64,000 nucleotides of DNA. Origin: an uncultured Candidatus Saccharibacteria bacterium (GTDB lineage Bacteria > Patescibacteriota > Minisyncoccia > Phycocordibacterales > UBA1006). Below the pieces are notes generated by a model. That model searched no databases. It was not told the DNA's origin and was given only the letters and a program-made list of their open reading frames with translations. Where the stretch lies: positions 79,541-143,540 of the forward strand of contig CAZQDL010000001.1 of the NCBI GenBank assembly GCA_964592365.1. The letters are read 5' to 3'. The position numbers were made by a program, and so were the translations under genes. Below are positions 13,956 to 43,762 of this stretch, piece after piece; position 1 is the stretch's first letter, and each line of letters begins with the position of its first letter.

Positions 13956-14031
13956 GGTGACTATGGTATAACGGTTATTACTCGGGTTTGTGGTACCTGC
14001 AATCAGGGTTCGATTCCCTGTAGTCACCCCA
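13956..14031 (+). tRNA. tRNA-His (anticodon GUG) with a genome-encoded G-1 and an encoded 3' CCA
   Basis: Manual fold. G-1 at 13956. Acceptor stem GTGACTA/TAGTCAC, anticodon stem-loop CGGGT-TTGTGGT-ACCTG, T-arm CAGGG-TTCGATT-CCCTG, discriminator C, then CCA. Confidence 0.8.
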
Positions 14032-16565: not shown

Positions 16566-16566
16566 T

Positions 16567-19094: not shown

Positions 19095-19104
19095 ATATGA
19101 CTAA

Positions 19105-19710: not shown

Positions 19711-19809
19711 ACTTCTTATCGAGATGTCATTAAATAAATTAAAAAATTTTTGAAGAAGCTTAGTATAAAAACTTGTTAAGGGATAGTAAAAAACTGATAT
19801 AATTTAGCT

Positions 19810-20376
19810 ATGGAAAATATTACTACTGAAGAATATGTCTTGCTTTTAGAAAAAGTTAATCAGCAATTAAATTTATTATCTAACCCTTACGGGGTTATGG
19901 TTATGGTACTCACTCTTTTAGTAGCTATTTTAGCTATAATAACCACTTTTATTATTTACAGGCAAGGGGTAGATTATAAAAATACATTAAAAAAATCACT
20001 CGAATCTCACCAAGAAATATTAGAGAAGAAACTCATAGAAATAGGAAATGAAGCAGAGCAGACCCTACAGTCTTATATTGATCAGAAAAATGAAGAGATT
20101 AGTGGATTAGCTGGTGAGGCAAAAGAGGAGGTAACAAAAGCGATTAGTAAATTGGAAGCCGAGAAGAATAGCATAACCTCAAGAATTAAATTTAATTCCA
20201 TAGATCATTTTAACAGTGTTGATAATAGATTAAGTGCTCATAACAGCCTGTTGCTACAAAATAATACAAATGCCCTAAGGACATGCTCATCTTGTTACAG
20301 GTCCTTAGGTGTTACAGATTCTTTAATTACAGGAAGGTGTAGTGACTGTGCTAGCCAAAAAATATTTCAGATATGA
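19810..20376 (+). CDS. Hypothetical protein with an N-terminal TM helix, a coiled coil and a C-terminal CxxC...CxxC zinc ribbon
   Basis: TM helix MVMVLTLLVAILAIITTFIIY. C-terminus CSSCYRS...CSDCASQ. Confidence 0.4.
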   Translation: MENITTEEYVLLLEKVNQQLNLLSNPYGVMVMVLTLLVAILAIITTFIIYRQGVDYKNTLKKSLESHQEILEKKLIEIGNEAEQTLQSYIDQKNEEISGLAGEAKEEVTKAISKLEAEKNSITSRIKFNSIDHFNSVDNRLSAHNSLLLQNNTNALRTCSSCYRSLGVTDSLITGRCSDCASQKIFQI

Positions 20377-20836
20377 AAAGAGATATAGTTAAAGAAGATA
20401 TTTTTCTTCAAAAGAAAGAGATGTTAAGCATCAGATTAATAACCTAAATCAAGAGAATTGGAAATCAAATATTCTAAATATAGGAGAATTGAGCAGATTT
20501 GGTTTCCTGCTGTTGGTTTTTATGATATTAGTGTTTATTGCTACTATTATTAATTTTCATTCTAAAAAATTGTATACTATTCAAATTTAGACGGTTACTT
20601 TAATGAAGAAGGTGATCATAAAAAAGATGGTCTCGACTCTACTTATTTTAATATAGTGAAGCTTTACGGACAAAGGTTTTTTTTGAATAAAACTGCTTCT
20701 ATTTTTGATTGGGGTAGTTATGGTATTTCTGATAATATCTAAAATATGAATAGTTTAGAAAAAGAGTTTGGTATAAGAGAGCCTGAAAGAGGCCCAAAGC
20801 AAAAGAAGAATTTAGCTTGATAGATAAGATATTTTT

Positions 20837-21391
20837 ATGACAAGAGAGGCAATATTAAACCATATAGATTTACAAGTATTTATTTTGAGTATTTTTGATA
20901 ATACCTTCCTCGGAAGTCTTTTTGCTGGTTTAATATTAGGATACATAGCATTTGAAACTTATAAAAAGCAAAAAAAAGTAGATCTTGAATTCTATTTTAA
21001 AAAGGAAAAAGAAATAGCTAAACGTACTTTTATTAATAAAATTAAGGCTTTTAGGAGAGAAGCAGTTCCTACACTTAAATCTTTTTTGTCACAAGAGAAA
21101 CACACAATTGATTATATTGAAGTAACGATGAGCGAACTAGGGGAAATTGAGGTTTTAAATAACTTTCAAAATATATACGATAAACACCGTGATGAAATTA
21201 ATAGAGCTTATGAGGAACTATGTACTCATTTTGAAATAGAATCTCTTAGTTCGCATATGGCCACTATTCAATTTTGCTTAATGCAAATGAGGTTAGTTTC
21301 AAAAACGAGCAATGAGGGTTTAAAGCTGACATTAAAAAATATTGAGAATGAAACCGAAGCCATTATAAAACATCTTGAATTTAAAGAATGA
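20837..21391 (+). CDS. Hypothetical protein (184 aa), N-terminal TM helix
   Basis: ORF only. Confidence 0.35.
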   Translation: MTREAILNHIDLQVFILSIFDNTFLGSLFAGLILGYIAFETYKKQKKVDLEFYFKKEKEIAKRTFINKIKAFRREAVPTLKSFLSQEKHTIDYIEVTMSELGEIEVLNNFQNIYDKHRDEINRAYEELCTHFEIESLSSHMATIQFCLMQMRLVSKTSNEGLKLTLKNIENETEAIIKHLEFKE

Positions 21392-21648
21392 AGATAAATA
21401 TGTTTATTCACCAAAAAGAAAACGAGAAAAAATATCTAACAAAAAAAGAAGAAATATATGATAAAGCCTCAATATGGGGTCAGTTTCATGGTTGGTTCTT
21501 GCTAGTGACATCTATAGGATTATATGTTTACGGACTTGTAGCCAATAACACCTTAAGTCAATCTATTAGTATAAGTTTCATTGATTTAGTACTAAATATT
21601 ATTGTTGCAATCATAATGATTCAGATTTCATCGAGAATTGACCAATAA
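21388..21648 (+). CDS. Small membrane protein (86 aa), overlapping the upstream gene by 4 nt
   Basis: ATGA overlap. Two TM helices. Confidence 0.35.
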   Translation: MKINMFIHQKENEKKYLTKKEEIYDKASIWGQFHGWFLLVTSIGLYVYGLVANNTLSQSISISFIDLVLNIIVAIIMIQISSRIDQ

Positions 21649-21841
21649 AATATCCAAAGAAAAAACCGATTAAAGTCGCACTAGTTTTTTGGTTAATATT
21701 ATTACTTATTTTAATGTTGACGGGAGCCTCTGTTATACAGAAGTTTTTTTGTTTCGTGGTTTTATATAAATTAGTGAACGCAAATACCAGTTTGAGAGAA
21801 ACTAAAACCTAGAGAATGAGTATTCTTATATTAAGTTAAGA

Positions 21842-22069
21842 TTATAAAAATGGTATTTCAGAATTAATTTCTTTCCAATTTAGAGTTCTGAAATCATCCA
21901 GCCATTGACCCATTAAGGGACATATACCCTCCAAACCTTGAAAAGGTCCTTGTTTATCAAGGGCTTTTTCTAGTTCGATTACAGGATACTTAGATTTAAT
22001 AGAATTTACTAATAATCGAACTTCTTTATAGGTAGGTTTTAGCTCAATAGTTATCTCCTTATCTTTCAT
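21842..22069 (-). CDS. Hypothetical protein. The frame is open further upstream with no ATG, so the true start is uncertain.
   Basis: Stop-to-stop frame extends to about 22235. Only the 75 aa segment is Met-initiated. Confidence 0.25.
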   Translation of the reverse strand: MKDKEITIELKPTYKEVRLLVNSIKSKYPVIELEKALDKQGPFQGLEGICPLMGQWLDDFRTLNWKEINSEIPFL

Positions 22070-22242
22070 GCTGTATTTGGTCCCAATTTGCCTTACAAGA
22101 AAACGCTTTTCAGTATCATCACCTGTTTCAAGAGCTTCTTCATATAATTCATTAAAATTAAATGCTTTCTCAATATCTTTATATAAATCATTCGAAGTTT
22201 CTGCTTCAATAAAATCAATAAATAATATAAACTTAAGATATT

Positions 22243-22980
22243 ATGATGAACTTTTTTACAAAATTATTAACTCCAGTATTTATTGCTCTGGGAATGGTTA
22301 ATCCTGCTCCTGTCATAGAAACACCAACACCTGATATACAAGTACAACAAGAGCTTATTGAATTACGTCAAAGAGTCCAAGAGTTTGAAAACCGAAATGA
22401 TCAAGAAGCGGAATTAGAGCCAAAATCACAAGAGACTAAAGAAAAAGTTATTGAAATAAAACCAGCAGAAGTGAAAAAGGAAAACCTTAATACCTTAACT
22501 ATTTTTAAACCTGAGTCGAAACCCACAGAGACTTTAATAGATGCTTCTTATCTAGATAAATTAGAGCTTTTCAATGTTAAAGTAGCCAAGCTAGATGAGG
22601 AATCTAGTAAGGAATTAGATGCATTAGATTTAAAATATGACTCAAAAATTGCGAAGGTTAAACAGGAGATTATTGAAATTAACAAAATGTTTGATGATTA
22701 CGAACAATCCATAACCTTAGGTTTTGTTCCTGGATTTTCGGGCGGCGGTAACGGTGCACCATCTTCAGTTACAAACAGTAAAATGCAAGTTGAATTGAAT
22801 CGAAGGTCTCAATGGCTTTTATCTACCTATCCAGTAGAGTTTGAAGCTTTAAAGTTAGAAATGCAGGGATATCTTGATGAAAAGATGGAAGCGATTAATA
22901 AATCAGAATCCAATTTAATTAAAGAGATTAAAGAATTGCAAACACAGTGGAATATAAAGACAGAAGATTGGTTATATTAA
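22243..22980 (+). CDS. Secreted or anchored coiled-coil protein (245 aa)
   Basis: N-terminal hydrophobic segment followed by a charged helical repeat region. Confidence 0.4.
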   Translation: MMNFFTKLLTPVFIALGMVNPAPVIETPTPDIQVQQELIELRQRVQEFENRNDQEAELEPKSQETKEKVIEIKPAEVKKENLNTLTIFKPESKPTETLIDASYLDKLELFNVKVAKLDEESSKELDALDLKYDSKIAKVKQEIIEINKMFDDYEQSITLGFVPGFSGGGNGAPSSVTNSKMQVELNRRSQWLLSTYPVEFEALKLEMQGYLDEKMEAINKSESNLIKEIKELQTQWNIKTEDWLY

Positions 22981-22981
22981 T

Positions 22982-23287
22982 ATGAAAAAACTAATAATAT
23001 TAATACTTATCATTTTTGTAGGGCGATATCTATATATAAATAATTTTAGAAAAGAAGAATGGACAGGATTTTTTTATCCTAATGCTGAAGATCTTTCAGG
23101 GTGGATCAAGTCAGATAGATTATTTGATAGCATTGAATCGTGTAGGGACTGGATTGATTATCAGGTTGATGTATCTATGTTAGAGAATCCAGAGTTTTAT
23201 GAAGAAGGCGGTGATTATGATTATGAATGTGGACTTAACTGCAGATTGAAATCAGGAATGAATGTTTGTGAAGAAACTATTCAATAA
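22982..23287 (+). CDS. Small secreted Cys-containing protein (101 aa)
   Basis: Signal-like N-terminus, four Cys residues. The start lies 2 nt after the upstream stop. Confidence 0.35.
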   Translation: MKKLIILILIIFVGRYLYINNFRKEEWTGFFYPNAEDLSGWIKSDRLFDSIESCRDWIDYQVDVSMLENPEFYEEGGDYDYECGLNCRLKSGMNVCEETIQ

Positions 23288-23288
23288 A

Positions 23289-23318
23289 TAAACGACTTGA
23301 TTGCTCTAGTCGTTTTTT
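23289..23318. terminator. Bidirectional terminator (AAACGACT-N10-AGTCGTTTTTT)
   Basis: Lies between convergent genes. Confidence 0.5.
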
Positions 23319-23321
23319 AGA

Positions 23322-23894
23322 TTATTTTTCATTAACGATCAACTTATGCTTTCCTGTAATTATAAAGAAATAAATATATCGAATACCAATCAGAATTATA
23401 GATACTATAAGAAGATGTAACAGTAAGTTTGTTGACCATTTTATCCACGACCCTTCTACAACCTTGTTTTCTATTGAAAGACTGAAATTTTTATCTTTAG
23501 GGATAATTATTTTTGATGGAGTATTCTCGCCGCCAATTGTTAAGTTGATGTCTTTTAGAAGTAATCTTTGAGCTAACTCATTAGCCTCAGTGTTGTTATT
23601 GCTATTATAATGAGATTTATGTATGTCTGTATTTTCACAAAAATATTTAACCGTTTTTTCTATGTACTCATCTTCGAATCCTTTCTTGTCGTAATTTAAA
23701 GTTGATCCACTGAATGAGCCAAAAGTATATTTATTTGAATTACATTCTACTATGTATGTACTTTCATATTCATTTATGTATGGAACTCTCTCAGAATAAA
23801 AGAAACCTATTAAGGTTAAGACCACTAGCACAATTAATACATAAATAACCATAAATAGCCTATGCCACCATTTATTTTTTATCCCGCTTTTCAT
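23322..23894 (-). CDS. Membrane-anchored hypothetical protein (190 aa)
   Basis: N-terminal TM helix, a second TM helix near the C-terminus. Confidence 0.4.
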   Translation of the reverse strand: MKSGIKNKWWHRLFMVIYVLIVLVVLTLIGFFYSERVPYINEYESTYIVECNSNKYTFGSFSGSTLNYDKKGFEDEYIEKTVKYFCENTDIHKSHYNSNNNTEANELAQRLLLKDINLTIGGENTPSKIIIPKDKNFSLSIENKVVEGSWIKWSTNLLLHLLIVSIILIGIRYIYFFIITGKHKLIVNEK

Positions 23895-23949
23895 GAACTT
23901 ATTATATAGTAGAATTACTGTGTTTTAAAGATTATTTATTGGAATTATT

Positions 23950-23988
23950 TTTACAAAAAGTTCCGTATCCTAACCACAAACTGACCCT
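23950..23988 (+). repeat. Intergenic repeat copy A (TTTACAAAAAGTTCCGTATCCTAACCACAAACTGACCCT)
   Basis: A member of the family that occurs at least 9 times between 23.9 and 33.9 kb. Confidence 0.85.
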
Positions 23989-24037
23989 ATTTAGTGCTAG
24001 CACGAGAAGGTTCGTTTTCTCTGGTCTCAGCACAAAT

Positions 24038-24064
24038 AAAAAGCACTATTTTGAGTGCTTTTTG
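24038..24064 (+). terminator. Terminator hairpin (AAAAGCACT-N6-AGTGCTTTTT) downstream of repeat A
   Basis: Read directly. Confidence 0.55.
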
Positions 24065-24077
24065 TGATACTTAATAT

Positions 24078-24644
24078 ATGAAAATATTAGATAATATAAA
24101 CTATATTTTGGAAAAAAATCTACTAGAAATTGAAGATGTCGTTTTTTTGCTCAATAGAGTTCGAATTATTATAGAAAATAACTCTCAAAAAGATAAATAT
24201 GAGTTGTTGCATTTTTATGGTAATTGGATCTCACATTCTAATATAGAGAATCTACCTAATAAGATCATTGATGAAATAGAAAATGCTAGCAAAACCAATA
24301 GAATACAGGATCACTGGATGCTCCGTTCAGAGTTGTGTATTTTTTTTCAAGAGTATTCTTTAGATAAGTCATTATTAAACAATAGGGATAAATGGTATAA
24401 ATTTTCAACCTCACTTTATAATATTTTAATCGATACTCCGTTGATACCTAAAAATAAAAGCTTTAGTTTTATTTTTAATAAAACGAATCAAAAAGAAAAT
24501 AGAACTTTTTCTTGCTCGTTTGTTATTGAATATAAAAACGCACTAAATGATATTAGAAAAATTTCAGGCACATACTCCGTTCAAGATTCATTAAACGAAG
24601 ACAAAAAAGCCAAATGGCTTACTCAACAGGGTATTTGTATATAG
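24078..24644 (+). CDS. Hypothetical protein (188 aa)
   Basis: ORF only. Confidence 0.4.
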   Translation: MKILDNINYILEKNLLEIEDVVFLLNRVRIIIENNSQKDKYELLHFYGNWISHSNIENLPNKIIDEIENASKTNRIQDHWMLRSELCIFFQEYSLDKSLLNNRDKWYKFSTSLYNILIDTPLIPKNKSFSFIFNKTNQKENRTFSCSFVIEYKNALNDIRKISGTYSVQDSLNEDKKAKWLTQQGICI

Positions 24645-24916
24645 TTATTCTTTCTGCATTGGAAGATATGGTTAAACAAGGAGTAAAGGTATTTTTTGTA
24701 AACAAAGAAGTGTATGAACAAATTATGAATGCTCCTGACCATGGTGAATCTATCGTAAATAATCTCGTAGCATATACAGGATAAATTTTGTTTGAGATAA
24801 GTTATTCAATATTTATTTAAAATAAATTTAAATTAAAACTGATGGAGGTTCAAACATCATTTTTAACAGCCATAGCTATAAACAACATCAAAATCTATAT
24901 TCTTTTTATATTTTGA

Positions 24917-24922
24917 TATACT
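24917..24922 (+). promoter_or_regulatory. -10 box TATACT (within TTTTGATATACT), 6 nt upstream of the ATG at 24929
   Basis: Conserved motif; see the leaderless-promoter finding. Confidence 0.45.
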
Positions 24923-24928
24923 TAATTA

Positions 24929-25564
24929 ATGAAAAAAATAAAGTATATAATTACTATTTTAGTTGTATTACTATCATTCATTTCTACACTCTTCGTAGAA
25001 AATGGAATAAGTTATGGCAACTGTTTTCACCATGAAGATAAGAAAGATTTATATAGAGATATACCTCATAGGTACTGTATAAGCGAAAGTATTGATATTT
25101 TATCGTTTATAAAATCAAAAAGAAGTATTAACCACAATCATGGATATGTAAATATACATATACAATATCAAAATATACTCCCTTATATTTTACTACCAAT
25201 ATTTGGCTTAATTACCTTTTTTGCTTTTTCAAGAAAACAAATTTATAAAATAAATGGATGGCTTGTATTTGCTTTAATAGTATTCCCTCTGCTGGCACCA
25301 TTTGGTTGGGCAGTATTTTTAACTAATAATTTTGCATTAGGGAATTCAATTGCATGGGGTTTGTATTTAGGTTTGTTAATTGCTCTTATTTATTCATTGT
25401 TTAATAAGCAGGGAAATAAGAAATTAGTAATTATTTATATTGTTATGGGAATCACCTCGGTGTTGTTATATTCGTTTATAAACAGTGCCATAAAAGGTGC
25501 ATTTTATAATTATGGTGGTCCTCCGATGCCACAAGAAAATATACCTCAACTAAGTTTCGATTAA
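24929..25564 (+). CDS. Polytopic membrane protein (211 aa)
   Basis: About 5 TM helices. Confidence 0.45.
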   Translation: MKKIKYIITILVVLLSFISTLFVENGISYGNCFHHEDKKDLYRDIPHRYCISESIDILSFIKSKRSINHNHGYVNIHIQYQNILPYILLPIFGLITFFAFSRKQIYKINGWLVFALIVFPLLAPFGWAVFLTNNFALGNSIAWGLYLGLLIALIYSLFNKQGNKKLVIIYIVMGITSVLLYSFINSAIKGAFYNYGGPPMPQENIPQLSFD

Positions 25565-25576
25565 CTATAATTATTA

Positions 25577-25623
25577 AAAGTTCCGCATCCTAACCACAAA
25601 CTGACCCTAACGGGTTAGGATAC
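25577..25623 (+). repeat. Intergenic repeat copy B, full palindromic form (…GCATCCTAACC-ACAAACTGACCCTAACG-GGTTAGGATAC)
   Basis: 9 bp inverted arms ATCCTAACC/GGTTAGGAT flanking a 17 nt spacer. Sits directly after the stop of 24929..25564. Confidence 0.85.
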
Positions 25624-25633
25624 ACTACTTATT

Positions 25634-25659
25634 AAAAGCTTTATTCATATAAGGCTTTT
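25634..25659 (+). terminator. Terminator-like hairpin (AAAAGCTTTA-N6-TAAGGCTTTT)
   Basis: Read directly. Duplicated at 33235..33260. Confidence 0.45.
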
Positions 25660-25719
25660 AATATAGTCAAAACTATTCTTATTGTCTCTATAACCATTAC
25701 CTATTACAATGTAATTATT

Positions 25720-26268
25720 ATGAACAACACTCATAAATCAAAAGGATTCACCCTCATAGAACTCCTCGTAGTAGTAGCCATCATTGGAATACTAGCTACG
25801 GTTGTGTTGGCTTCGCTTGGAGCAGCAAGAGATAGAGCAAGAATAGCAAAATTAACAAGTGACTTTAAAACTATTGAAAAAGCCTTAGTAATGACTCTTC
25901 TTGATGAGGGAAGAACTACTTTCTGGCTAGAATCAGAAATTGGATTAGGTGGCAATCCTACTTTTGATGCTATTCATGCAAAAACTTCAGGAGCCATGGC
26001 AACCTTTTCAGATAATTTAGCAACGGTTCCAGATAATCCATTTACCACCGATAGTTATCGCTACGACGGAGATGAAATAACTACCGCAACTTGTGGTTGG
26101 GCACCGGGTATTAATATCCTTATGTATGGCTGGGATTTTGATCTTGCATCTGATATTGACACTTATATTGATGGTTCAGCCTCAGCCACTTGTGGTAAGT
26201 TTAGATATAATACAAATAATACTGCAGGAGATGGTGGGTACCATATTTCAAACGGTGCTGACTTCTAG
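25720..26268 (+). CDS. Type IV pilin-like protein (prepilin-type N-terminal cleavage/methylation domain), paralogue 1
   Basis: MNNTHKSKGFTLIELLVVVAIIGILATVVLASL gives a class III signal with G|FTLIEL. The C-terminus has the CGKFRY motif. Confidence 0.8.
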   Translation: MNNTHKSKGFTLIELLVVVAIIGILATVVLASLGAARDRARIAKLTSDFKTIEKALVMTLLDEGRTTFWLESEIGLGGNPTFDAIHAKTSGAMATFSDNLATVPDNPFTTDSYRYDGDEITTATCGWAPGINILMYGWDFDLASDIDTYIDGSASATCGKFRYNTNNTAGDGGYHISNGADF

Positions 26269-26284
26269 CTTAGTATAATGGTAA

Positions 26285-26313
26285 GGTTCCGTATACTATT
26301 TACAAACTGACCT
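26285..26313 (+). repeat. Intergenic repeat copy C (variant GGTTCCGTATACTATTTACAAACTGACCT)
   Basis: Lies 17 nt after the pilin stop. A hairpin and T-run terminator follow at 26317..26348. Confidence 0.75.
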
Positions 26314-26316
26314 AAA

Positions 26317-26348
26317 ATAAAATCCACATGTTAAATGAGGATTTTTTT
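26317..26348 (+). terminator. Terminator (AAAATCC-N13-GGATTTTTTT)
   Basis: Read directly. Confidence 0.55.
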
Positions 26349-26372
26349 ATGGAGTCACTAAAACTAATTTAC

Positions 26373-26798
26373 TTATGCCTTTATATTTTCTCTACTCTTT
26401 GCAACCCCAATAGTAATCAATGACACAAAACTAATAACAGCAATAGAGCCAAGTGTTTTATTAATAGCATCACCAGAAAGAAATTCCCAGATTGAAAGTA
26501 CACCAACGAGAGCGAGTATCACAAGTGCAATAATTAAAACTGTTCCAGTTATTTTTCTAAGAAAAACAAAAACAGAATCATCTTTAATGTAGTTCTCTTC
26601 ATTTTTGCTCGCCATTGATTTTTCAGCTATTAAAATAATTATTGTTACAACCAGCAAAAAACCAACTGTCCACATTGATTTTATTAGTGAGTCACCACTA
26701 ATAAAATCCCAAATTGAAAAAATAGATATCAATCCTAAGATCATATTTGAGAAAATAAAAATCATTGCTGTTATATCTGATATTTTTGTAAATTTCAT
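26373..26798 (-). CDS. Small membrane protein with an internal ~60 aa duplication
   Basis: Two homologous halves (…SIWDFISGDSLIKS… / …SIWEFLSGDAINKT…). It overlaps the long-start version of the next ORF, so one of the two models is wrong. Confidence 0.35.
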   Translation of the reverse strand: MKFTKISDITAMIFIFSNMILGLISIFSIWDFISGDSLIKSMWTVGFLLVVTIIILIAEKSMASKNEENYIKDDSVFVFLRKITGTVLIIALVILALVGVLSIWEFLSGDAINKTLGSIAVISFVSLITIGVAKSRENIKA

Positions 26799-26835
26799 AG
26801 TGCTAATTATATTATATGTATTGTATAATTACTAC

Positions 26836-28065
26836 ATGATTGAAACTATTGAAAAAACTTTCTCGTATATATTCGTCATTCTGTTATTGATAGGCTCTTA
26901 CTACATTGCTTATTCCTCTTATAATAATTCATCTGCTAGAACTGAAAGCATATATTCTCTAATGGAAAATCATTTTATTAACAACAGCCAGCAGCAAGTA
27001 TCTTCTAAAAACAATATTGAATTGGGTTCTTTTAAGGTAAGTGCAAGGGATATGAATGAACTTATCTTGAGAATAACTAACAAACACCCAGAAATAACAG
27101 TCTCAATTTCTGAAACTGATTTAGGGGAAAAAATCATGTTCAACTTAATATTTGAAGGATCACCCGATTCAATCCGGTTGGATGAAATGGACCTATTTTT
27201 AAAAAATCTTGCCCTTGAGTATAACGCTGAATATGTTTCACCTATTTCTGATAGTGTCCATACCGATATTCAAGATAATAAGGTCGTGGAAGATGTGGCT
27301 GTAGTTAGTACTCAACACGTGCAGAGTGTTTATGATAATAGCGCAATAGTATGGGCAGAAGTAAAAATAAATGAAAGTAAAAGCGCAGATATATACTTCC
27401 TTTTGAGCATAAATGAAGAAAAAATTAAAGAAGCTATATCTTCAAAAAGCCTTGATGAACTCAATTCTTTGGGGAATGATTTAACATTGAAATTTGTTGA
27501 TGTAATTTATGAAGATAATTATTTAAATACTAAACTCACTGATTTAGAGAGTAGTAGAAAGTACTACTATGTAGCATGTATTAAAAATGCTCAAGGATTG
27601 TTGATTTGTGATCAAACTATTAATACTTTTGAAACACTCCATGCAAAAGACAAAAATTATCTCCCTCATGTAGTAACCGGGAACAGTTATTATAACGAAA
27701 CTGGTTTGAATCTTTATTCTCCAATACTTACAGGGTCTTTTGCTAATGATGCTCCTTATCCTGGATACACAGTACTGGCTTCATTTGTGATAGCAAATCA
27801 AAAATCATCTCTCGAAGATACAGATAGACTCTTTGATCGTAACAGGAAAAATGACATCGAGTGGCTTGGGGTTGTTGGATCAATAACAGATTTTAAAAGT
27901 GGTGATTCATTTGAAGAGATGGCACATGCTCAGCGCGAAACATCATTTTATTACAGGGCATGTCTTCATTACGATGTAGACGCTAGTGGCTCAGGTTATA
28001 GTTCAGATACCTATGTCTGCGGCAACATTAATTATAACCAAGCGAAGATGAATTTTTTTAACTAA
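26836..28065 (+). CDS. Hypothetical membrane-anchored protein (start trimmed to the ATG at 26836)
   Basis: N-terminal TM helix (FSYIFVILLLIGSYYIAY). No motifs recognised. The ORF-track start at 26605 overlaps the minus-strand ORF. Confidence 0.4.
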   Translation: MIETIEKTFSYIFVILLLIGSYYIAYSSYNNSSARTESIYSLMENHFINNSQQQVSSKNNIELGSFKVSARDMNELILRITNKHPEITVSISETDLGEKIMFNLIFEGSPDSIRLDEMDLFLKNLALEYNAEYVSPISDSVHTDIQDNKVVEDVAVVSTQHVQSVYDNSAIVWAEVKINESKSADIYFLLSINEEKIKEAISSKSLDELNSLGNDLTLKFVDVIYEDNYLNTKLTDLESSRKYYYVACIKNAQGLLICDQTINTFETLHAKDKNYLPHVVTGNSYYNETGLNLYSPILTGSFANDAPYPGYTVLASFVIANQKSSLEDTDRLFDRNRKNDIEWLGVVGSITDFKSGDSFEEMAHAQRETSFYYRACLHYDVDASGSGYSSDTYVCGNINYNQAKMNFFN

Positions 28066-28083
28066 TTCTTAACTTGTATATCA

Positions 28084-28110
28084 AAAAGAATCACGAAGGT
28101 GATTCTTTTT
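28084..28110 (+). terminator. Terminator (AAGAATCAC-GAAG-GTGATTCTTTTT)
   Basis: Read directly. Confidence 0.6.
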
Positions 28111-28118
28111 GATATAAT
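28110..28118 (+). promoter_or_regulatory. Perfect extended -10 box TGATATAAT, 6 nt upstream of the ATG at 28125
   Basis: Matches the TGnTATAAT consensus. Implies a leaderless start. Confidence 0.55.
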
Positions 28119-28124
28119 TACTCC

Positions 28125-30362
28125 ATGAAAAGCATTTTAAAAATTATTATCTTTACTTCAGTTTTGGTTACTATTTTTTTACCAGAAACCCTTTTATATA
28201 AAAGATGTGAATTGAATGTAGAGGAAGAACATCAAACAAGTTATGCTTTAAATTTACTTGAGAGAAAATGCCCAGAGGGTTACAGCATAGATTATCGTAA
28301 TAGAAAACGTGATTCAAGTCTTTTTGAGTACCTTATTTCGATTAGTGAATTGTCTGATGAATATAAAGATGTTCCTCTTGATTTTGATTTTCTACTATTG
28401 GGAAAATATTTATTAATTAATCTTATCTTTATGACCCCATCTTTATTTCTAATAAGATTTATAAAGAAGAATAAAGTAAAAAGATTTAAAAGGGGAAACA
28501 ATGTATTATTTTTCATAATTACTACTCTTACTGTTCTTGCTCTAAGCTTCTTATCGATACTTGATTCAGTAAAATCTTTTTGCATATCTGCTCCCTGCCC
28601 TCAGCCTGCGACACCTTTTAATGGTAAATTTTATGATTTAGTTAGTGAAATGTACCCAAGTATTCTTAGCTTTATTCCTGCTATAACTATTGGTATTCTT
28701 CTCGCTTCTTTGATTATCTATCGTAAATCAGTGACCTTCACACAAGAAGAAAAAACTTTGAGACTAGAGAAGAAAAAACTTTTTAAAAAGAGAGTTGGAA
28801 AGGTTATCGCATGGATACTTAGTATTATGATGCTCCTTCATGTCATTAATATTATCTATTTAGGTCTTGAGAAAAAAGAAAAAAATAAGCTTCTGATCCA
28901 ATTTGATGAAATTGAAGTTCTACATAAAGAAGTTTCTTTTAAAAATTGTTACGATAGCGTTTCTACAGAGACTACTTTATTTTATTATTTCCAAGATGGA
29001 GATATAAATAGAATCGTAGCAAATAGAACCGCTTCTTGCTCCTATATACCAGGAGTCGATTTATCAAGTGGAACATTACTTACAAATAGCGAAAAGATAT
29101 TTTTTCAGATAAAAGTTCATCCAGATTTAAATAACCCTAAGTTGCTTAGTTATAGGGGTGAAGAGTACCAAGTGGAAAAGATTGAAACCAGTGTTAATTT
29201 TGACTCTTTGTTATCATCAGCAAGTAAGTATTTGATCGGTATAGAAGATTCATTGCAAAATGATGTAAAAGAGTCTTATAAGGTCGCTTTGATAGATAAA
29301 TGTCTTGGTCTTGAGAGTGAACAAAAAAGACAGGATTGTCTGGCTTTGGGTTCAGTGTTTTTTGTTGATTATGAGTTTTGTGAATACAGTAGTGATTCAC
29401 TACGTTGCGGTAATTTATATCAAGGAAAAAAGAGTATTGTCCTTGAGGAAATTAATAAAGAAGAGATTAAGAAGAGTGACCAAGAAAATCGAAGGAGAGC
29501 AACAGAAGAAAAAGATCTAAGCTACTGCTATGATATTGTTGATGATAATATTCGATTTGATTGCTTTGAGTATTTACCAAACGAAGTTTTTATAGATATT
29601 TTTTCAGATCTTAATGATGACGGTGAGCTTAGACCACTTGAAGAAATACTAAAAAACATTGAAGATACTCGTAAGGTCTGTTCAGATTTTGATAGTCATT
29701 TATGCTATGTTTTAGGAAGAGAAAAAGTGCTTACGCCTTACGAGTGTACGGTCAACAGTAATCAAAAAAATTATTCAATCTCAACTTGTATTCCAATCTC
29801 AGTCATTCTTTATTCTACAACCGGTGATATATGTAATGATGTAAAAGATAATGCTGCTCAAAATTCTTGCTACCATGACTTATATCGATTTGAAGAAATG
29901 AATATAGATATTTCTCTTGGGGAACCATATACTAATTCTGAAATTCGCGATGAGTACATAGATAAAACAACGTCTTTACTTGATGATTCTTTTTATAAAA
30001 AAGAGATCATAAACGATTCACCTTCCATGGGTATATATGAAATACTTGAAAGCGAAAATAATAATATAGAAAATTTAAGAGGAACAAAAACAGAAGATCT
30101 CACACCTCGTGTTATGTATTGGTCAGGTAAGGTAAATCAGTATGTTGATTTGGAGTTTAGGGAATGGAGATCAGATCCTGACGGATCAAGTGGTGCGAGT
30201 ATCGACCTTCTTGATTATTGTAGAGAAAAATATCTAGATTTAAATATAGTTGATATTAAGGAGTATAAAATGGAAAGTATTAATACTTGGCGTGATTCAG
30301 GGAATGTGAATAGTTATTCAGGAACAAAACAGTCTTACGAGTGCGTCTTGTATAAAAACTGA
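28125..30362 (+). CDS. Large hypothetical Cys-rich protein (745 aa) with N-terminal TM segments
   Basis: Signal/TM helix at the N-terminus, about 4 TM helices between aa 90 and 240, and more than 30 Cys residues in the C-terminal 450 aa. Confidence 0.45.
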   Translation: MKSILKIIIFTSVLVTIFLPETLLYKRCELNVEEEHQTSYALNLLERKCPEGYSIDYRNRKRDSSLFEYLISISELSDEYKDVPLDFDFLLLGKYLLINLIFMTPSLFLIRFIKKNKVKRFKRGNNVLFFIITTLTVLALSFLSILDSVKSFCISAPCPQPATPFNGKFYDLVSEMYPSILSFIPAITIGILLASLIIYRKSVTFTQEEKTLRLEKKKLFKKRVGKVIAWILSIMMLLHVINIIYLGLEKKEKNKLLIQFDEIEVLHKEVSFKNCYDSVSTETTLFYYFQDGDINRIVANRTASCSYIPGVDLSSGTLLTNSEKIFFQIKVHPDLNNPKLLSYRGEEYQVEKIETSVNFDSLLSSASKYLIGIEDSLQNDVKESYKVALIDKCLGLESEQKRQDCLALGSVFFVDYEFCEYSSDSLRCGNLYQGKKSIVLEEINKEEIKKSDQENRRRATEEKDLSYCYDIVDDNIRFDCFEYLPNEVFIDIFSDLNDDGELRPLEEILKNIEDTRKVCSDFDSHLCYVLGREKVLTPYECTVNSNQKNYSISTCIPISVILYSTTGDICNDVKDNAAQNSCYHDLYRFEEMNIDISLGEPYTNSEIRDEYIDKTTSLLDDSFYKKEIINDSPSMGIYEILESENNNIENLRGTKTEDLTPRVMYWSGKVNQYVDLEFREWRSDPDGSSGASIDLLDYCREKYLDLNIVDIKEYKMESINTWRDSGNVNSYSGTKQSYECVLYKN

Positions 30363-30374
30363 TATATTAATCCA

Positions 30375-30403
30375 AGTTCCATATCCTAACCACAAACTGA
30401 CCT
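30375..30403 (+). repeat. Intergenic repeat copy D (AAGTTCCATATCCTAACCACAAACTGACC)
   Basis: Lies 13 nt after the stop. A terminator follows at 30408..30437. Confidence 0.8.
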
Positions 30404-30407
30404 AGAA

Positions 30408-30437
30408 TAAAAAGTCCTTATTTATAAGGGCTTTTTT
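30408..30437 (+). terminator. Terminator (AAGTCCTTA-N4-TAAGGGCTTTTTT)
   Basis: Read directly. Confidence 0.5.
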
Positions 30438-30534
30438 CCCTAGAAAATGATATCCCTTTCGAAACATATATATTGACATAAACATAATATGGTGTATTAT
30501 AAATAAAACAATTTAATAAACTAAATTCTAAAAT

Positions 30535-30944
30535 ATGAACTTAAATGTAGTATCCCCAGAAGTACCAATTTTTACTAATACTAAGAATGAAGCACTAAGC
30601 CTTAATAAGATTATTGAAGATAAAAAAATTACTTCAGTAACTATTGCTTATCTTTCGAAAGAAAAGAAGGTAAAAGTAAAAGGTATCAAAGGTTATTTCG
30701 GATTAAAAGAAATAAAACAGGAGGAAAAAAACTAACTATTCTTGATCCCAAGGGAATCATTCTTAATTTTGAAAAAGGAGCTGAATCTGCTTCTATTAGA
30801 TTCTGGGATAAAAATGAATTTGAAAAATTATCCGATGAAAATTATGATAAGGATACCTTATGGAAAAGATATGTAATGAGCATAGTTTGCCCGTATCAGA
30901 TTAATTTCCATATTGGGAATCTTATTTATGTTGATTGGAACTAA
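30535..30944 (+). pseudogene. Hypothetical gene interrupted by a +1 frameshift in an A7 homopolymer (30725..30731)
   Basis: The 66 aa ORF ends at 30735. The adjacent frame stays open for another 70 codons to 30944 with no start codon, and the reading-frame junction lies in the GGAAAAAAAC run. Confidence 0.5.
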
Positions 30945-30984
30945 TACCTCCACCTATAGAGAAATCTATTTAGGTGGATTTTTC

Positions 30985-31022
30985 TTTACAAAAAGTTCCG
31001 TATCCTAACCACAAACTGACCC
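30985..31022 (+). repeat. Intergenic repeat copy E (TTTACAAAAAGTTCCGTATCCTAACCACAAACTGACCC)
   Basis: Identical to copy A over 38 bp. A terminator-like hairpin follows at 31024..31055. Confidence 0.85.
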
Positions 31023-31154
31023 AGAAAAAATCCCCTTACTAAAAGCGGATTTTTGTATACTTTCTTTGGAAGAATATAGGGTTTATATTTGACATATTAT
31101 AAATTTATATACATAATATATTTAGATTATGTTTAACAATTAAATTATATAAAA

Positions 31155-31835
31155 ATGACAAAAAAAAATTCAAAATCAGAATTAAAAGCGATCGAAGGGT
31201 TTTCCGCAGGAGAAGTACAATCAGCAGAAGAAACCTTCGATAATTTATGTTTCTTTTTAGAAAATCTATTAAAAGTTTTTCCAGACAATGAGTTTGGAAG
31301 GTTGAATTCATTTTATTCAATCCCTTCAATTCGTAAATATCTGTATAACATAAATCGAGAATGGGGTTATTGTAGTCCAGCTGATCTTTCTCAAGGAGAA
31401 CTTGCTGATTTGAAGTTTACCTTGCATGTACTCGAGAATTTTATGGTAGAAGAGGCAACGGAATATATATCTGGTGTAGTAACTGAAGCAGCAACTTATT
31501 TTGCTTCAATTAATTTAAGCATTAATTTGTCTGGTAAAATTAATTTCAGATTAAATGAAGATGGAGATCTCGCGCCCTTACATTGCCAAGATGCCTTATA
31601 TTATGAAATGTATTTAAATAATATTGCACCTATAATAAAAAGCATTGAGCTTTCTCCTGATTCATTTTTGGAATATAAAGCGGCTCGAAAATCTATGTTC
31701 TTTAATCGTAACCGCAATACTAAATCATTAATAGAAGGAACGTTAACATTAAGTGACACACTTTTAGTTATGAAGACAATTCACACAACAGGTTTTGTTA
31801 TTGGAAGTTTTCCAAAAGTACAAGTTAGTTCTTAG
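31155..31835 (+). CDS. Hypothetical protein (226 aa)
   Basis: ORF only. Confidence 0.4.
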   Translation: MTKKNSKSELKAIEGFSAGEVQSAEETFDNLCFFLENLLKVFPDNEFGRLNSFYSIPSIRKYLYNINREWGYCSPADLSQGELADLKFTLHVLENFMVEEATEYISGVVTEAATYFASINLSINLSGKINFRLNEDGDLAPLHCQDALYYEMYLNNIAPIIKSIELSPDSFLEYKAARKSMFFNRNRNTKSLIEGTLTLSDTLLVMKTIHTTGFVIGSFPKVQVSS

Positions 31836-31858
31836 TCTGAATTAAAATTTAAAATAGT

Positions 31859-31896
31859 ATAACCCTTAGCATATATGTTAAGGGTTATTTATATTT
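31859..31896 (+). terminator. Terminator (ATAACCCTTA-N10-TAAGGGTTAT plus a T-rich tract)
   Basis: Read directly. Confidence 0.5.
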
Positions 31897-31901
31897 CAAA
31901 A

Positions 31902-31932
31902 TTCGTATCTTATTTATAAACTGATCTTAGCG
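31902..31932 (+). repeat. Degenerate repeat copy H (TTCGTATCTTATTTATAAACTGATCTTAGCG)
   Basis: Shares TTCGTATC…AAACTGA(C/T)C…TAGCG with copies F and B. Confidence 0.55.
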
Positions 31933-32024
31933 TGTTAAAAACCTCATGCATATTGAACCTTGAATTCTTATTTCGAGATTATAAAGGTATTATTTCATCT
32001 CTATCGTATCAAATACTGCATCTA

Positions 32025-32045
32025 ATCGTATCATTATGATACGAT
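32025..32045. promoter_or_regulatory. Perfect palindrome ATCGTATCA-TTA-TGATACGAT upstream of the RhuM/Fic gene (candidate operator). A further TCGTATC half-site lies at 32004.
   Basis: Read directly. The GTATC/GATAC half-sites also form the arms of the intergenic repeat family. Confidence 0.4.
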
Positions 32046-32052
32046 TTTGATA

Positions 32053-32076
32053 TATGTCCTATTTATAAACTGAATC
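32053..32076 (+). repeat. Degenerate repeat copy I (TATGTCCTATTTATAAACTGAATC)
   Basis: Similar to copies C and H. Confidence 0.4.
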
Positions 32077-32176
32077 AAAATAACAATGTTTATTTATATT
32101 CTGTATAACGGATATCCAGCTTCATATCGATAAAAACTTCCTACCTGCACATGATTTCTTCTGATATAGTAGGAAT

Positions 32177-33160: not shown

Positions 33161-33182
33161 TGTTTATTTCAAATATGTAATT

Positions 33183-33224
33183 TTCGTATCCCATTCATGA
33201 ACTGACCCTAGCGGGTTAGGATAC
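33183..33224 (+). repeat. Intergenic repeat copy F, palindromic variant (TTCGTATCCCATTCATGAACTGACCCTAGCGGGTTAGGATAC)
   Basis: GTATCC…GGATAC arms. The following ~200 bp are about 93% identical to 25624..25830. Confidence 0.8.
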
Positions 33225-33320
33225 ACTACTTATTAAAAGCTTTATTCATATAAGGCTTTTAATATAATCAAAACCATTCTCATTGCCTCTATAACTATTA
33301 CCTATTACAATGTAATTATT

Positions 33321-33809
33321 ATGAACAACACTCATAAATCAAAAGGATTTACCTTAATTGAACTCCTCGTAGTAGTAGCCATCATTGGAATACTAGCTAC
33401 GGTGGTGTTGGCATCATTAGAAGGTGCACGAAGTAAAGCAAGAGATGCAAAAAGACTTTCTGATTTAAAACAAATTCAAATTGCATTAGAGATGTACTAT
33501 GGTGATAACGGTTCATATCCTAATAATGGTGGTGGTTGGTGGGGAAATTGCTCGACTTTTGGGTCTCGTGGGGTAACAGGTCCAACTGGGTATATTCCTA
33601 ACCTAGCTCCTAATTATATTTCAGTTTTACCACTAGATCCTAAACCCTCAAACGGAGCATGTTATTTGTATAGATCTTCTGATCCAAATTCATATATGTT
33701 TTTAATTTATCAAACCGTCGAAGGGGTTGTTCCAGATTCATTAAAAAGACCAAACTACCCAAATGAAAAGAACTACGCTGTTTATGCGGGGAACGGTTCT
33801 AGTTACTAA
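33321..33809 (+). CDS. Type IV pilin-like protein, paralogue 2 (its first 35 aa are nearly identical to paralogue 1)
   Basis: MNNTHKSKGFTLIELLVVVAIIGILATVVLASL, then a divergent globular part. Confidence 0.8.
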   Translation: MNNTHKSKGFTLIELLVVVAIIGILATVVLASLEGARSKARDAKRLSDLKQIQIALEMYYGDNGSYPNNGGGWWGNCSTFGSRGVTGPTGYIPNLAPNYISVLPLDPKPSNGACYLYRSSDPNSYMFLIYQTVEGVVPDSLKRPNYPNEKNYAVYAGNGSSY

Positions 33810-33872: not shown

Positions 33873-33901
33873 GGTTCCGTATCCTAATCACAAACTGACC
33901 C
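33873..33901 (+). repeat. Intergenic repeat copy G (GGTTCCGTATCCTAATCACAAACTGACCC)
   Basis: Lies downstream of the pilin stop. A strong terminator follows at 33905..33937. Confidence 0.8.
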
Positions 33902-33904
33902 AGA

Positions 33905-33937
33905 TAAAAATCCCCTTAGCGAAAAGGGGATTTTTAT
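33905..33937 (+). terminator. Terminator (AAAATCCCCTT-AGCG-AAAAGGGGATTTTT)
   Basis: 11 bp stem plus a T-run. Confidence 0.65.
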
Positions 33938-34060
33938 CTATACTTTTCGGTAAAATAACCTTGATATATTACACAATACTATTTACAAATAGCAAGTATA
34001 TGTTAGTATTATAAAAAATTGAATTAATTTTCACATATACTAACAATTAAAACATAAATA

Positions 34061-43252: not shown

Positions 43253-43762
43253 ATGAATATATCCAAATCAAAAGGATTCACCTTAATTGAACTATTGGTG
43301 GTAGTTGCCATCATTGGAATATTAGCAACTGTGGTGTTAGCGTCATTAGGTAGTGCTCGTGATAGGGCAAGATATACGAAGGTGCTTGCTTCATTGAAAC
43401 AATTGGAAACTGAATTACATATTCAAAATCCAGGATCATGGTGGCCAGAAACTTCTGGTGGAGGAATTCCTACAAGTAGCAATATTAGCTTATCTAAATA
43501 TAATTTTGGTTGGACCATTCATTATGATAATGATGGGGATGTTCTTCCTATCGTAGGAGATTGTGTCTTTACAGAAGGTGTTAGAGGCTACGGAGTTAAC
43601 ATATTCCTCGTATCATTATCTGCAGCAGATTTTGATACCCTCAATGATTATATCGATCCAGAAGAAAAAGGTGATACTGATACTAATAAACAATCTTGTG
43701 GAAAATTTAGATATGCTGGTACTACAGGAATATATAGCATAGCCAAAGATGCGAATAGTTAA
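43253..43762 (+). CDS. Type IV pilin-like protein, paralogue 3
   Basis: MNISKSKGFTLIELLVVVAIIGILATVVLASLGSARDRARY. The C-terminus has CGKFRY, as in paralogue 1. Confidence 0.8.
   Translation: MNISKSKGFTLIELLVVVAIIGILATVVLASLGSARDRARYTKVLASLKQLETELHIQNPGSWWPETSGGGIPTSSNISLSKYNFGWTIHYDNDGDVLPIVGDCVFTEGVRGYGVNIFLVSLSAADFDTLNDYIDPEEKGDTDTNKQSCGKFRYAGTTGIYSIAKDANS

Follow-up and report, generated by a model that had tools for sequence, protein, structure and literature searches.

A duplicated promoter-leader unit on two pilin genes within a putative stack of small insertions behind a tRNA-His gene of a Candidatus Saccharibacteria bacterium

The locus

In this work, we describe a duplicated stretch of sequence at the front of two pilin genes, here called pilin A and pilin B, in the genome of an uncultured Candidatus Saccharibacteria bacterium. 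In Patescibacteria, type IV pili are needed for attaching to the host and for taking up DNA, and pilin paralogues are numerous. The analysed stretch, called the window below, is 64 kb long (contig CAZQDL010000001.1), and all positions refer to it unless another locus is named. Both genes lie in an array of small modules found downstream of a tRNA-His gene, and a 27-nt intergenic repeat, present in several copies along the array, stands before each of them. A further 40 kb or so of this genome, at loci L012 and L014, was also considered, for a total of about 104 kb with the window, and at least 13 pilin paralogues were found: 3 in the window, 8 in L014 and 2 in L012. The main features of the pilin loci are the following.

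25599..25809, + strand: shared block, copy A, including the junction, an inverted arm, hairpin 2, the promoter and codons 1-30 of pilin A
25613..25628, + strand: inverted partial copy of the left arm of the repeat, GGTTAGGATACACTAC, from folding and repeat finding
25630..25663, + strand: hairpin 2, an AT-rich, terminator-like 15-bp stem, TATTAAAAGCTTTAT/ATAAGGCTTTTAATA, invariant between A and B
25682..25710, + strand: sigma-70-type promoter TTGTCT-17-TACAAT of pilin A, from a promoter scan, with 10 other pilin genes and further genes of the window for comparison
25720..26268, + strand: pilin A, 182 aa, Pfam N_methyl; leader MNNTHKSKG, cut before FTLIE; body of the subfamily of L014_12197
33200..33410, + strand: shared block, copy B, matching 25599-25809
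33283..33311, + strand: promoter TTGCCT-17-TACAAT of pilin B, from the promoter scan
33321..33809, + strand: pilin B, 162 aa, from Pfam; leader shared with pilin A; T2SSG-like body, from the L012_10001 and L014_6452m subfamily
43253..43762, + strand: third pilin, 169 aa, outside the array; promoter TTGAAA-17-TACAAT, 6 nt before the ATG

Extent of the shared block

The two loci were compared without gaps at a constant offset of 7601 nt, and 200 of the 211 positions between 25599 and 25809 proved identical to their counterparts between 33200 and 33410 (94.8%). An earlier note, made from the sequence alone, had reported a duplicated segment of about 250 bp with about 93% identity: the duplication is confirmed, but over 25577-25830 the identity is about 89%, and the higher figure fits the core only. 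The same note placed the start of the block exactly at the repeat. This is correct, and can be made more precise, as the left edge of the identity lies inside the 27-nt repeat, at AACTGACC. To the 5' side of the repeat, the two loci are 24% identical, which is background level; the left 19 nt of the repeat agree at 11 positions, and AACTGACC agrees at 8 out of 8. The copy at 33181, copy F of the earlier note, has a perfect AACTGACC and a degenerate 19-nt sequence to the left of it.

On the opposite side, the right-hand breakpoint falls after 25809, at codon 30/31, as determined by a maximum-chi-square test with permutation (P=0.0002); beyond 25830 the identity decreases to 60%, and then to about 30%. 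The complete divergence of the two genes after a shared N-terminus, as originally described, is therefore found again, as an abrupt drop past 25809 which leads into bodies of different pilin subfamilies.

Simple conservation of the signal peptide would confine the identity to the coding N-terminus. Instead, 107 of the 113 non-coding positions between 25607 and 25719 are identical, and the non-coding part of the block is better conserved than the coding one. Codons 1-33 specify the same amino acids in both genes, all nucleotide differences being synonymous; amino acid identity at the N-terminus is, however, uninformative by itself, because the mature N-terminus is common to all 13 paralogues and to many pilins from outside. 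At the nucleotide level, A and B share 50 of 51 nt over codons 14-30, versus at most 44 of 51 when either gene is compared with the 11 other paralogues. A small patch at codons 10-13 carries 4 changes in A, and the A/B-specific tract still reaches codon 30. When the sequences upstream of all 13 pilin genes are compared, only those of the A/B pair have more than an 18-nt promoter motif in common. The A/B-specific block thus spans AACTGACC to codon 30.

The 11 mismatches between the two copies comprise 8 transitions and 3 transversions, without adenine bias. A diversity-generating retroelement was discarded on this ground, and since no reverse transcriptase domain is encoded in the window.

Pilins A and B as mosaics

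Both reading frames match Pfam PF07963 (N_methyl, E of about 8e-10), and both proteins begin with MNNTHKSKG followed, after the predicted cleavage site, by FTLIELLVVVAIIGILATVVLASL, with the glycine at -1, the hydrophobic residue at +1, the glutamate at +5 and the hydrophobic helix typical of a class III signal peptide. The mature N-terminus GFTLIELLVVVAIIGILATVVLASL is identical in 13 out of 13 paralogues, whose genes are 74-99% identical over the corresponding 84 nt. The same peptide is present, with few substitutions at most, in nearly all of the best 120 matches of pilin A from elsewhere, and the first 40 residues of the pilin match 15,693 cluster representatives at E <=0.001. The leader MNNTHKSKG, in contrast to this widespread segment, is restricted to A and B among the matches listed in both protein searches.

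Downstream of the helix the two proteins have different relatives. The C-terminal domain of pilin A is 41% identical to L014_12197 over 148 aa (E=3e-35), and the body of pilin B is nearest, by BLASTP, to L012_10001 (53% identity over 60 aa), while A and B align with each other over just 29 aa of the helix. The nucleotides immediately following the breakpoint in B, past 33410, agree at 16 of 18 positions with L012_10001 and L014_6452m, and at 11 of 18 with A. As the bodies have closer paralogues elsewhere, while the upstream block is common to A and B only, the two genes are mosaics, with a single front end fused to bodies from two old subfamilies. The junction lies within the segment common to all paralogues, as would be expected for homologous recombination between them.

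At least 10 further pilin genes lie at L014 5373-18625 and L012 10001-12219, several of them amid ribosomal-protein genes: the order is S19...L5, pilin, NUDIX, pilins, S14...SecY, pilin, and a 25-residue mature N-terminus is identical in all. No prepilin peptidase and no pilus assembly machinery are encoded in the window or in the other loci read. Some pilins from outside (P0015, P0023, P0024, P0026, P0030, P0031, P0038, P0040, P0050, P0060 and P0099) start with MNTKSKGFTLYPRA(Y/S)SLHKKSGFTLIELL, a partial tandem duplication of the leader and of the first residues, which looks like the scar of an unequal recombination in the conserved 5' segment.

The 27-nt repeat and the tRNA-His array

The repeat GTTCCGTATCCTAACCACAAACTGACC occurs between 23960 and 33900 in 7 clear copies and a decayed one, all on the + strand, and is absent from the other 94 kb or so of the same genome, that is, from the rest of the window and the 40 kb from elsewhere. 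Folding predicts a hairpin followed by a U-run after every copy. The repeat copies and the features which delimit the array are listed below.

13957..14031, + strand: tRNA-His gene, anchor of the array, from ARAGORN and Rfam; the order VKOR - tRNA-His is also found in relatives L001, L019 and L020
14032..23959, + strand: island 1, with its own terminator and an HTH_17 open reading frame (ORF) at the start, then restriction-modification methylase genes, T5orf172/ResIII genes and unannotated ORFs (Pfam); ends in repeat copy 1
23960..23986, + strand: repeat copy 1, GTTCCGTATCCTAACCACAAACTGACC, at the place of a 19-nt duplicate of the tRNA-His 3' end in L001
23988..24017, + strand: 30-nt non-coding element ATTTAGTGCTAGCACGAGAAGGTTCGTTTT, left end of module M1, 100% identical in L001
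25580..25606, + strand: repeat copy 2 (copy B of the earlier note); its left 19-23 nt are the right end of M1, and from AACTGACC on it belongs to the pilin A module
26286..26312, + strand: repeat copy 3, right end of the pilin A module
30376..30402, + strand: repeat copy 4
30995..31021, + strand: repeat copy 5, aligning with the tRNA-His 3' end of L020
31900..31926, + strand: repeat copy 8, decayed (AATTCGTATCTTATTTATAAACTGATC), positional homologue of the L020 copy at 2385, with the same gene and terminator before it
33181..33207, + strand: repeat copy 6 (copy F), 12/19 to the consensus over the left 19 nt, AACTGACC intact
33874..33900, + strand: repeat copy 7, where the pilin B module and the array as a whole end on the right
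33902..33939, + strand: ancestral tRNA-His terminator (38-nt hairpin), core AAAATCCCCTTAGCGAAAAGGGGATTTT at 33907-33934, stems identical to those of the L019 terminator

Relatives of the locus, found through the neighbouring VKOR gene and by pattern scans, provide the key to this arrangement. In L019, whose VKOR is 59% identical, VKOR and an identical tRNA-His are followed at once by AAAATCCCCTTAGAAATAAGGGGATTTT, without any island, so that this represents an empty site; the same terminator, with identical stems, is found in the window right after repeat copy 7, 19.9 kb downstream of the tRNA-His gene. This match, at 33902-33939, is unique in the window, with 0 expected. Island 1 is missing in both L019 and L020, where the terminator directly follows the tRNA-His.

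L020, with a VKOR 87% identical, carries a single module at the tRNA-His: the gene is followed by a terminator, a promoter, a gene of 221 aa, a further terminator, a 27-nt copy (ATTCCGCATCCTATCCATAAACTGACC) and a second tRNA-type terminator, near-identical to the first. The 221-aa gene is homologous to 31155-31835 of the window, and the terminator behind it to 31859-31888, so the same module occupies a different rank in the two arrays. In the alignment of the two loci, repeat copy 5 takes the place of the tRNA-His 3' end of L020, and the terminator, the promoter and gene 31155-31835 behind it match their counterparts there. In L001, a Patescibacteria metagenome-assembled genome, the tRNA-His gene is separated by 186 nt from a 19-nt duplicate of its own 3' end, after which come 30 nt, an unrelated gene, a 27-nt copy and a terminator; the 30 nt behind the duplicate are 100% identical to 23988-24017, which adjoins copy 1 in the window. 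In three independent comparisons with relatives, therefore, a tRNA-His 3' end is found at the position held by the repeat in the window. The repeat itself is conserved at 25 of 27 positions in L001, although the identity of the adjacent VKOR protein does not exceed about 52%.

The flanks of the repeats are shared in mosaic combinations, copies 1 and 5 having the left flank in common, copies 5 and 7 the right one, and copies 2 and 6 again the right one; this is what would be expected for hybrid junctions. The right ends of the modules consist of a conserved 23-nt motif, GTTCCGTATCCTAACCACAAACTG, and the next module starts with ACC(C/T) and a terminator-like hairpin. The repeat is thus most simply read as the right end (about 23 nt) of the module to its left, plus ACCC, the first bases of a segment shared with the tRNA flank. 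The array is made of eight modules, island 1 included: this measures 9.95 kb and is followed by seven small modules of 0.6-4.1 kb. Several modules have a G+C content of 27.5-31%, versus 33.9% in the rest of the window, and the direct repeats at the boundaries and the tRNA-His gene all lie on the + strand. Judging from these alignments, the simplest reading is that the region 14032-33900, of about 19.9 kb, would be a tandem stack of insertions between the tRNA-His gene and its ancestral terminator.

The duplicate of about 210 bp forms the left end that two pilin modules of about 0.7 kb share; these modules extend approximately from 25603 to 26308 and from 33204 to 33896. The shared block starts at the repeat because the pilin module starts there. 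Copy 6 fits this model, since its left 19 nt correspond to the right end of a different unit, the RhuM/Fic module, in a decayed form, while from AACTGACC on the sequence is 95% identical to the pilin A module.

Two elements of the shared front end may be related to the junction. The inverted arm GGTTAGGATACACTAC forms with repeat copy 2 an imperfect palindrome of 49-67 nt (25571-25637), centred near 25604, with 25-nt arms, 72% complementary, separated by a 17-nt spacer. The decayed copy at 31900 is followed by TTAGCGTGTTAAAAAC, which resembles a left end of the pilin type; this suggests that the inverted arm is probably a part of the junction region, rather than a regulator of the pilin genes. 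A loose alignment of hairpin 2 with the family of tRNA-His terminators is only suggestive of homology.

Other interpretations of the repeat were examined and set aside. A CRISPR-like or tandem-array organization does not agree with a spacing of 0.6-4 kb between copies. A tRNA-derived repeat is not supported by the motif itself: ARAGORN detects two tRNAs only, the alignment of the motif to the tRNA-His 3' end is not significant and no fold with a T-arm and acceptor stem is formed. A dif/Xer site is not expected here, as the cumulative GC skew rises monotonically over the window, which therefore contains no terminus, and the motif is unlike known dif arms. A DNA-uptake sequence was dismissed in view of the distribution of the motif, all copies of which lie within 10 kb, with none in about 94 kb of further sequence from this genome. 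No Rfam family matched the repeat at gathering thresholds, and matches at E <=5 over 23800-34100 were sub-threshold and at chance level. Nothing real was found in viral contigs, the 15 matches of a looser pattern are due to chance and have neither the left arm nor a terminator, and a literature search for the motif as a string retrieved unrelated primers only. A sequence resembling the right part of the repeat, CCTATTTATAAACTGAATC, is located at 32050-32078, within the RhuM/Fic module, and may be a further decayed copy.

Origin of the duplicated front end

Taken together, these data make it reasonably probable, in our judgement, that the duplicated front end is the product of accretion of islands at the tRNA-His gene combined with recombination between pilin paralogues, and not of programmed switching. 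The repeat would be an att-type (attachment) junction, generated by site-specific integration and accretion at the tRNA-His gene, with ...CTG|ACCC followed by the terminator as the candidate att sequence. A pilin A module excised as a circle would, accordingly to such a scheme, join its right end to its own left end, with the predicted junction GGTTCCGTATACTATTTACAAACTG-ACCC-TAACGGGTTAGGATAC. The front end would have been joined to different bodies by homologous recombination or gene conversion, with the right-hand crossover within the 84-nt segment coding for the N-terminal helix common to all pilin paralogues. The genes of pilins A and B are complete and would be transcribed separately, as accessory pilin genes having the same promoter strength and regulation and the same 9-residue leader and lacking a Shine-Dalgarno sequence, and the hairpin may shield each promoter from read-through from the neighbouring module. 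The proposal of the earlier note, that the repeat serves as a recombination boundary, finds support in the tRNA-His 3' ends at homologous positions in three relatives and in the mosaic flanks, and is here recast in terms of an att-type junction.

Several observations weigh against this interpretation. No integrase or recombinase of any kind was recognized by Pfam among the proteins of the 64-kb window, the sole integration-related ORF found there being the HTH_17 excisionase-type ORF at 14170-14367. Seven assemblies show no variation in the array or in either block, so the modules may be fixed relics, and their present-day mobility is unproven. The alignment of the 27-nt motif with the tRNA-His 3' end is not significant (P of about 0.055), and within the window the tRNA end and the repeats have only ACCC, along with a homologue of the terminator, in common. 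Exact-pattern scans of genome and metagenome collections detected the motif in one other organism only, as L001 and L002, and contig look-ups included, it was found in just two. Since the leader and front end occur on no other pilin among the matches listed in either protein search, the data do not support pilin cassettes of this kind circulating as a family. The repeat and the common upstream block are also absent from the contigs that encode pilin A-like proteins or a pilin whose leader is similar (L009-L011, L017). The order of events is compatible either with duplication of a whole module followed by replacement of its body, or with copying of the front end alone. Finally, purifying selection, rather than recency, could partly account for the strong conservation of the non-coding part of the block.

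The earlier note had favoured a shared promoter cassette behind which variable regions are exchanged, by analogy with pilE/pilS. The common promoter and leader on unrelated bodies agree with the first half of this proposal; an active variation system does not find support. High-frequency swapping of bodies behind one promoter, as in pilE/pilS or in a shufflon, would account for the same promoter and N-terminus being attached to unrelated bodies, for the direct repeats flanking both pilin genes and for a conserved N-terminal coding segment, which could act as a homology arm. Yet both loci are complete, with promoter, ATG and signal peptide, and no promoterless or 5'-truncated copies exist in the 104 kb or so; the silent C-terminal cassettes which the earlier note suggested looking for were not found either, since tblastn searches with the C-terminal domains against the window, L012 and L014 recovered full-length pilin genes only. 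In addition, no G-quadruplex motif (G3+N1-7 x4) is present on either strand of the window and no recombinase is detected nearby by Pfam. The repeats being direct, a shufflon-type inversion is impossible, and no inverted repeats bracket the promoter, which also speaks against a promoter switch of the fimS type, the sole inverted arm lying 17 nt from copy 2. The 11 differences between the blocks are fixed, and the seven assemblies, from different samples, are the same in sequence and order, although these are consensus assemblies, in which minority variants are possible. We regard programmed variation as highly improbable. A plain segmental duplication, with bodies diverging under diversifying selection while promoter and signal peptide are kept, and with the repeat as an incidental neighbour, would be in line with the fast evolution of pilin globular domains, with the extreme constraint on the N-terminus in all paralogues and with the functional-looking elements of the non-coding block. 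It appears improbable, as each body is much closer to a paralogue elsewhere (L014_12197 for A, L012_10001 for B) and the sequence past the breakpoint in B points to a mosaic instead of a gradual decay; the drop in identity is abrupt, and the left boundary coincides with an insertion boundary in three relatives.

The repeat might, alternatively, function at the RNA level, as a 3'-untranslated element placed before a terminator, in which case the array would be a set of co-regulated units and the pilin duplication an unrelated gene conversion. The motif is always on the + strand and directly 5' to a hairpin and U-run, 7 of the 8 copies lie downstream of a + strand ORF, most copies are predicted to be single-stranded, and conservation extends across genera. 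Copy 1, in contrast, follows the start of a minus-strand ORF (23322-23894), and not the 3' end of a + gene; Rfam contains no match, the motif is restricted to 10 kb by the tRNA-His and missing from the other 94 kb or so, and an RNA role leaves unexplained the tRNA-His 3' ends at homologous positions in relatives. This makes such a role quite improbable. An active platform for gene capture at the tRNA-His, where an unlinked recombinase inserts, excises and reshuffles promoter-bearing cassettes at the 23-nt motif and terminator, seems to us rather unlikely. It would explain the presence of a terminator and a promoter in each of the eight small modules (0.6-4 kb, the first one excepted), the mosaic combinations of flanks, the module found at another rank in L020, and the persistence of end types with different cargoes: an M1-type left end precedes a different gene in L001, and the pilin-type left end is found on two different pilins and also in the decayed copy at 31900. 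This model is opposed by the lack of a recombinase in the window, the lack of variation among assemblies, the decayed junctions at 31900 and 33181, the rarity of the motif in public data and the absence of integron attC architecture at the sites. If it were true, the front end of the pilins (att site, promoter, leader and helix) would accept varied bodies, providing an integron-like route to surface diversification in an episymbiont.

Under the favoured interpretation, accretion at the tRNA-His gene with recombination between paralogues, the locus would be a new example of known processes, tRNA-gene island accretion and mosaic pilin paralogues, in a little-studied phylum, and not a new mechanism. 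It would show how pilin genes are built and placed, as small modules stacked behind a tRNA gene, with an ultra-conserved N-terminal coding segment that lets a promoter-leader unit join unrelated pilin bodies. It also supplies an exact candidate att sequence, usable to look for excised circles and for the recombinase.

Comparison with known systems

Tandem accretion at a common site is exemplified by the cis-mobilizable elements related to Streptococcus thermophilus ICESt1/3. In the tandem islands at the ssrA gene of Dehalococcoides, a direct repeat is found at each boundary, with a 15-bp element-borne motif just upstream, for which no alignment to the RNA gene exists, and an integration module is missing from some of the islands (PMC3146451). 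The array described here resembles such tRNA/tmRNA islands in the insertions placed directly 3' of a small RNA gene, in the same orientation and with a direct repeat per boundary, in the conserved element-borne motif, in members without an integration module, and in the existence of relatives with empty (L019) or differently filled sites. It differs from them in the very small size of the modules (0.6-4 kb after island 1), mostly of 1-3 genes and none with an integrase, in an identity segment which seemingly consists of the last 4 nt of the tRNA plus the terminator, the repeat being mostly element-derived, and in the host, a bacterium of the Patescibacteria (candidate phyla radiation).

Among pilin systems, Neisseria pilE/pilS is characterized by silent copies, a G-quadruplex element and variation within populations. 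The several pilin sequences per genome, the conserved 5' coding segment as recombination substrate and the mosaic products are common to that system and to the present one; here, however, both genes are complete and have a promoter, and the exchange is a fixed evolutionary event, with 5% divergence. The pilA allele island of Pseudomonas aeruginosa lies beside a tRNA-Thr gene, with one locus per genome and alleles that differ between strains. Divergent pilin bodies in a tRNA-linked variable region, conserved N-terminal coding sequences and exchangeable bodies are found in both cases; in contrast, two modules coexist here within a single array, and elsewhere there are at least 11 more pilin genes, many in ribosomal-protein operons. 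R64-type shufflons rely on the Rci recombinase, whose gene is adjacent, and on inverted 19-bp repeats in or after the coding region, which rearrange C-terminal segments of PilV. Recombination at short repeats which generates pilin diversity would be the shared trait, but the repeats are here direct, intergenic and upstream, and the window encodes no recombinase.

Integron arrays, and those clusters of attC sites lacking integrases known as CALINs, are likewise composed of small units in the same orientation, with a recurring site and hybrid junctions, and in CALINs no integrase is found nearby. The present array is devoid of R''/R' inverted core pairs and, at most copies, of a 55-141-nt imperfect palindrome; its modules possess their own promoters and terminators, and it is anchored at a tRNA gene. 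Five of the 8 copies have no inverted partner, just a terminator hairpin, and the core motifs depart from R'' (RYYYAAC) and R' (GTTRRRY) on direct reading, no dedicated attC model having been run. No tyrosine recombinase, such as IntI, was found in the window, and a literature search retrieved no paper on integrons or attC in Patescibacteria bearing on this locus.

Promoters and start sites

A palindrome upstream of the pilin ATG, TTACAATGTAA, had attracted attention in the earlier note. It contains the -10 hexamer TACAAT, 9 nt before the ATG of pilin A, and is better described as a -10 box, part of the normal start architecture of this genome. A count over the pilin genes shows that boxes of this type are indeed present in some of them, but in 3 of 13 only, which does not fit a pilin-specific motif. 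Of the other ten genes, nine have a GATATAAT-type -10 box, (TG)nGATATAAT, 6-9 nt before the start codon, in one instance before an upstream in-frame ATG; in one of these nine the box reads GATATACT. The third pilin of the window, at 43253, does carry a related sequence, as reported, in the form of the promoter listed above; apart from this promoter, its upstream region is unrelated to those of A and B.

Start sites with the same organization are found beyond the pilins. The sequence TTACAATGYA occurs 4 times in the window, versus 0.63 expected, and three of these are just upstream of pilin ATGs. GATAYAMT-N6-ATG occurs 7 times versus 0.35 expected, six of them at the start codons of listed ORFs; the remaining ATG, at 48508, is internal to ORF 48487-48858. 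The seven sites are the following.

4468-4484, + strand: GATA(T/C)A(A/C)T-N6-ATG
9488-9504, - strand: same motif
19796-19812, + strand: same motif
24915-24931, + strand: same motif
28111-28127, + strand: same motif
48494-48510, + strand: same motif
63563-63579, + strand: same motif

A Shine-Dalgarno-like motif was recognized at 1 of the 34 gene starts surveyed in the window, as a weak AAGG. From the 9-nt spacing between the -10 box and the ATG, the pilin A mRNA would be leaderless, or nearly so, and the organism seems to rely on starts of the leaderless type throughout its genome.

Gene content of the modules and minor observations

No Pfam match was obtained for the unannotated ORFs of the modules, and PHROGs recognized none of the module ORFs, except for weak matches of 19810-20376, in island 1, to families of unknown function. 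Between 14170 and 19710, the HTH_17 ORF precedes an Eco57I/MmeI-like methylase, which is divided between two overlapping ORFs (14351-15061 and 15042-16565), and a T5orf172+ResIII protein of 834 aa, with a second T5orf172/MUG113 protein on the opposite strand; this segment is probably a defence island. The 30-nt element ATTTAGTGCTAGCACGAGAAGGTTCGTTTT, at the left end of M1, contains a 10-bp palindrome, GTGCTAGCAC; its counterpart is at L001 1270-1299, the same terminator stem comes next in both organisms, and it may represent a module end or a binding site. The 745-aa product of 28125-30362 is rich in cysteine and belongs to the membrane or the cell surface; its C-terminal 80 residues match Pfam APP_N above the cut-off (E=2e-9), an amyloid A4 N-terminal heparin-binding domain, unusual in a bacterium.

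The gene at 31155-31835 (226 aa), the sole gene of the L020 module (L020 1654-2319), has no Pfam or PHROGs match and belongs to a family of just four in a set of 5.8 billion clustered proteins; a 636-kb contig from the JGI (Joint Genome Institute) carries one of the four. In L001, the 186 nt at 1059-1244, between the tRNA-His terminator and the duplicated 3' end, are richer in G+C, and may be what is left of an integrated element since lost, or a small RNA gene. In L012, the region 4300-10000, just upstream of a pilin gene, contains no called protein genes other than two LAGLIDADG ORFs, and is probably an rRNA gene with homing-endonuclease introns. Finally, a 12-nt tandem repeat, GAAGAAGCAACT, is iterated about 5 times at 12486-12557, in the C-terminal extension of the gene for ribosomal protein L19 (11991-12566).

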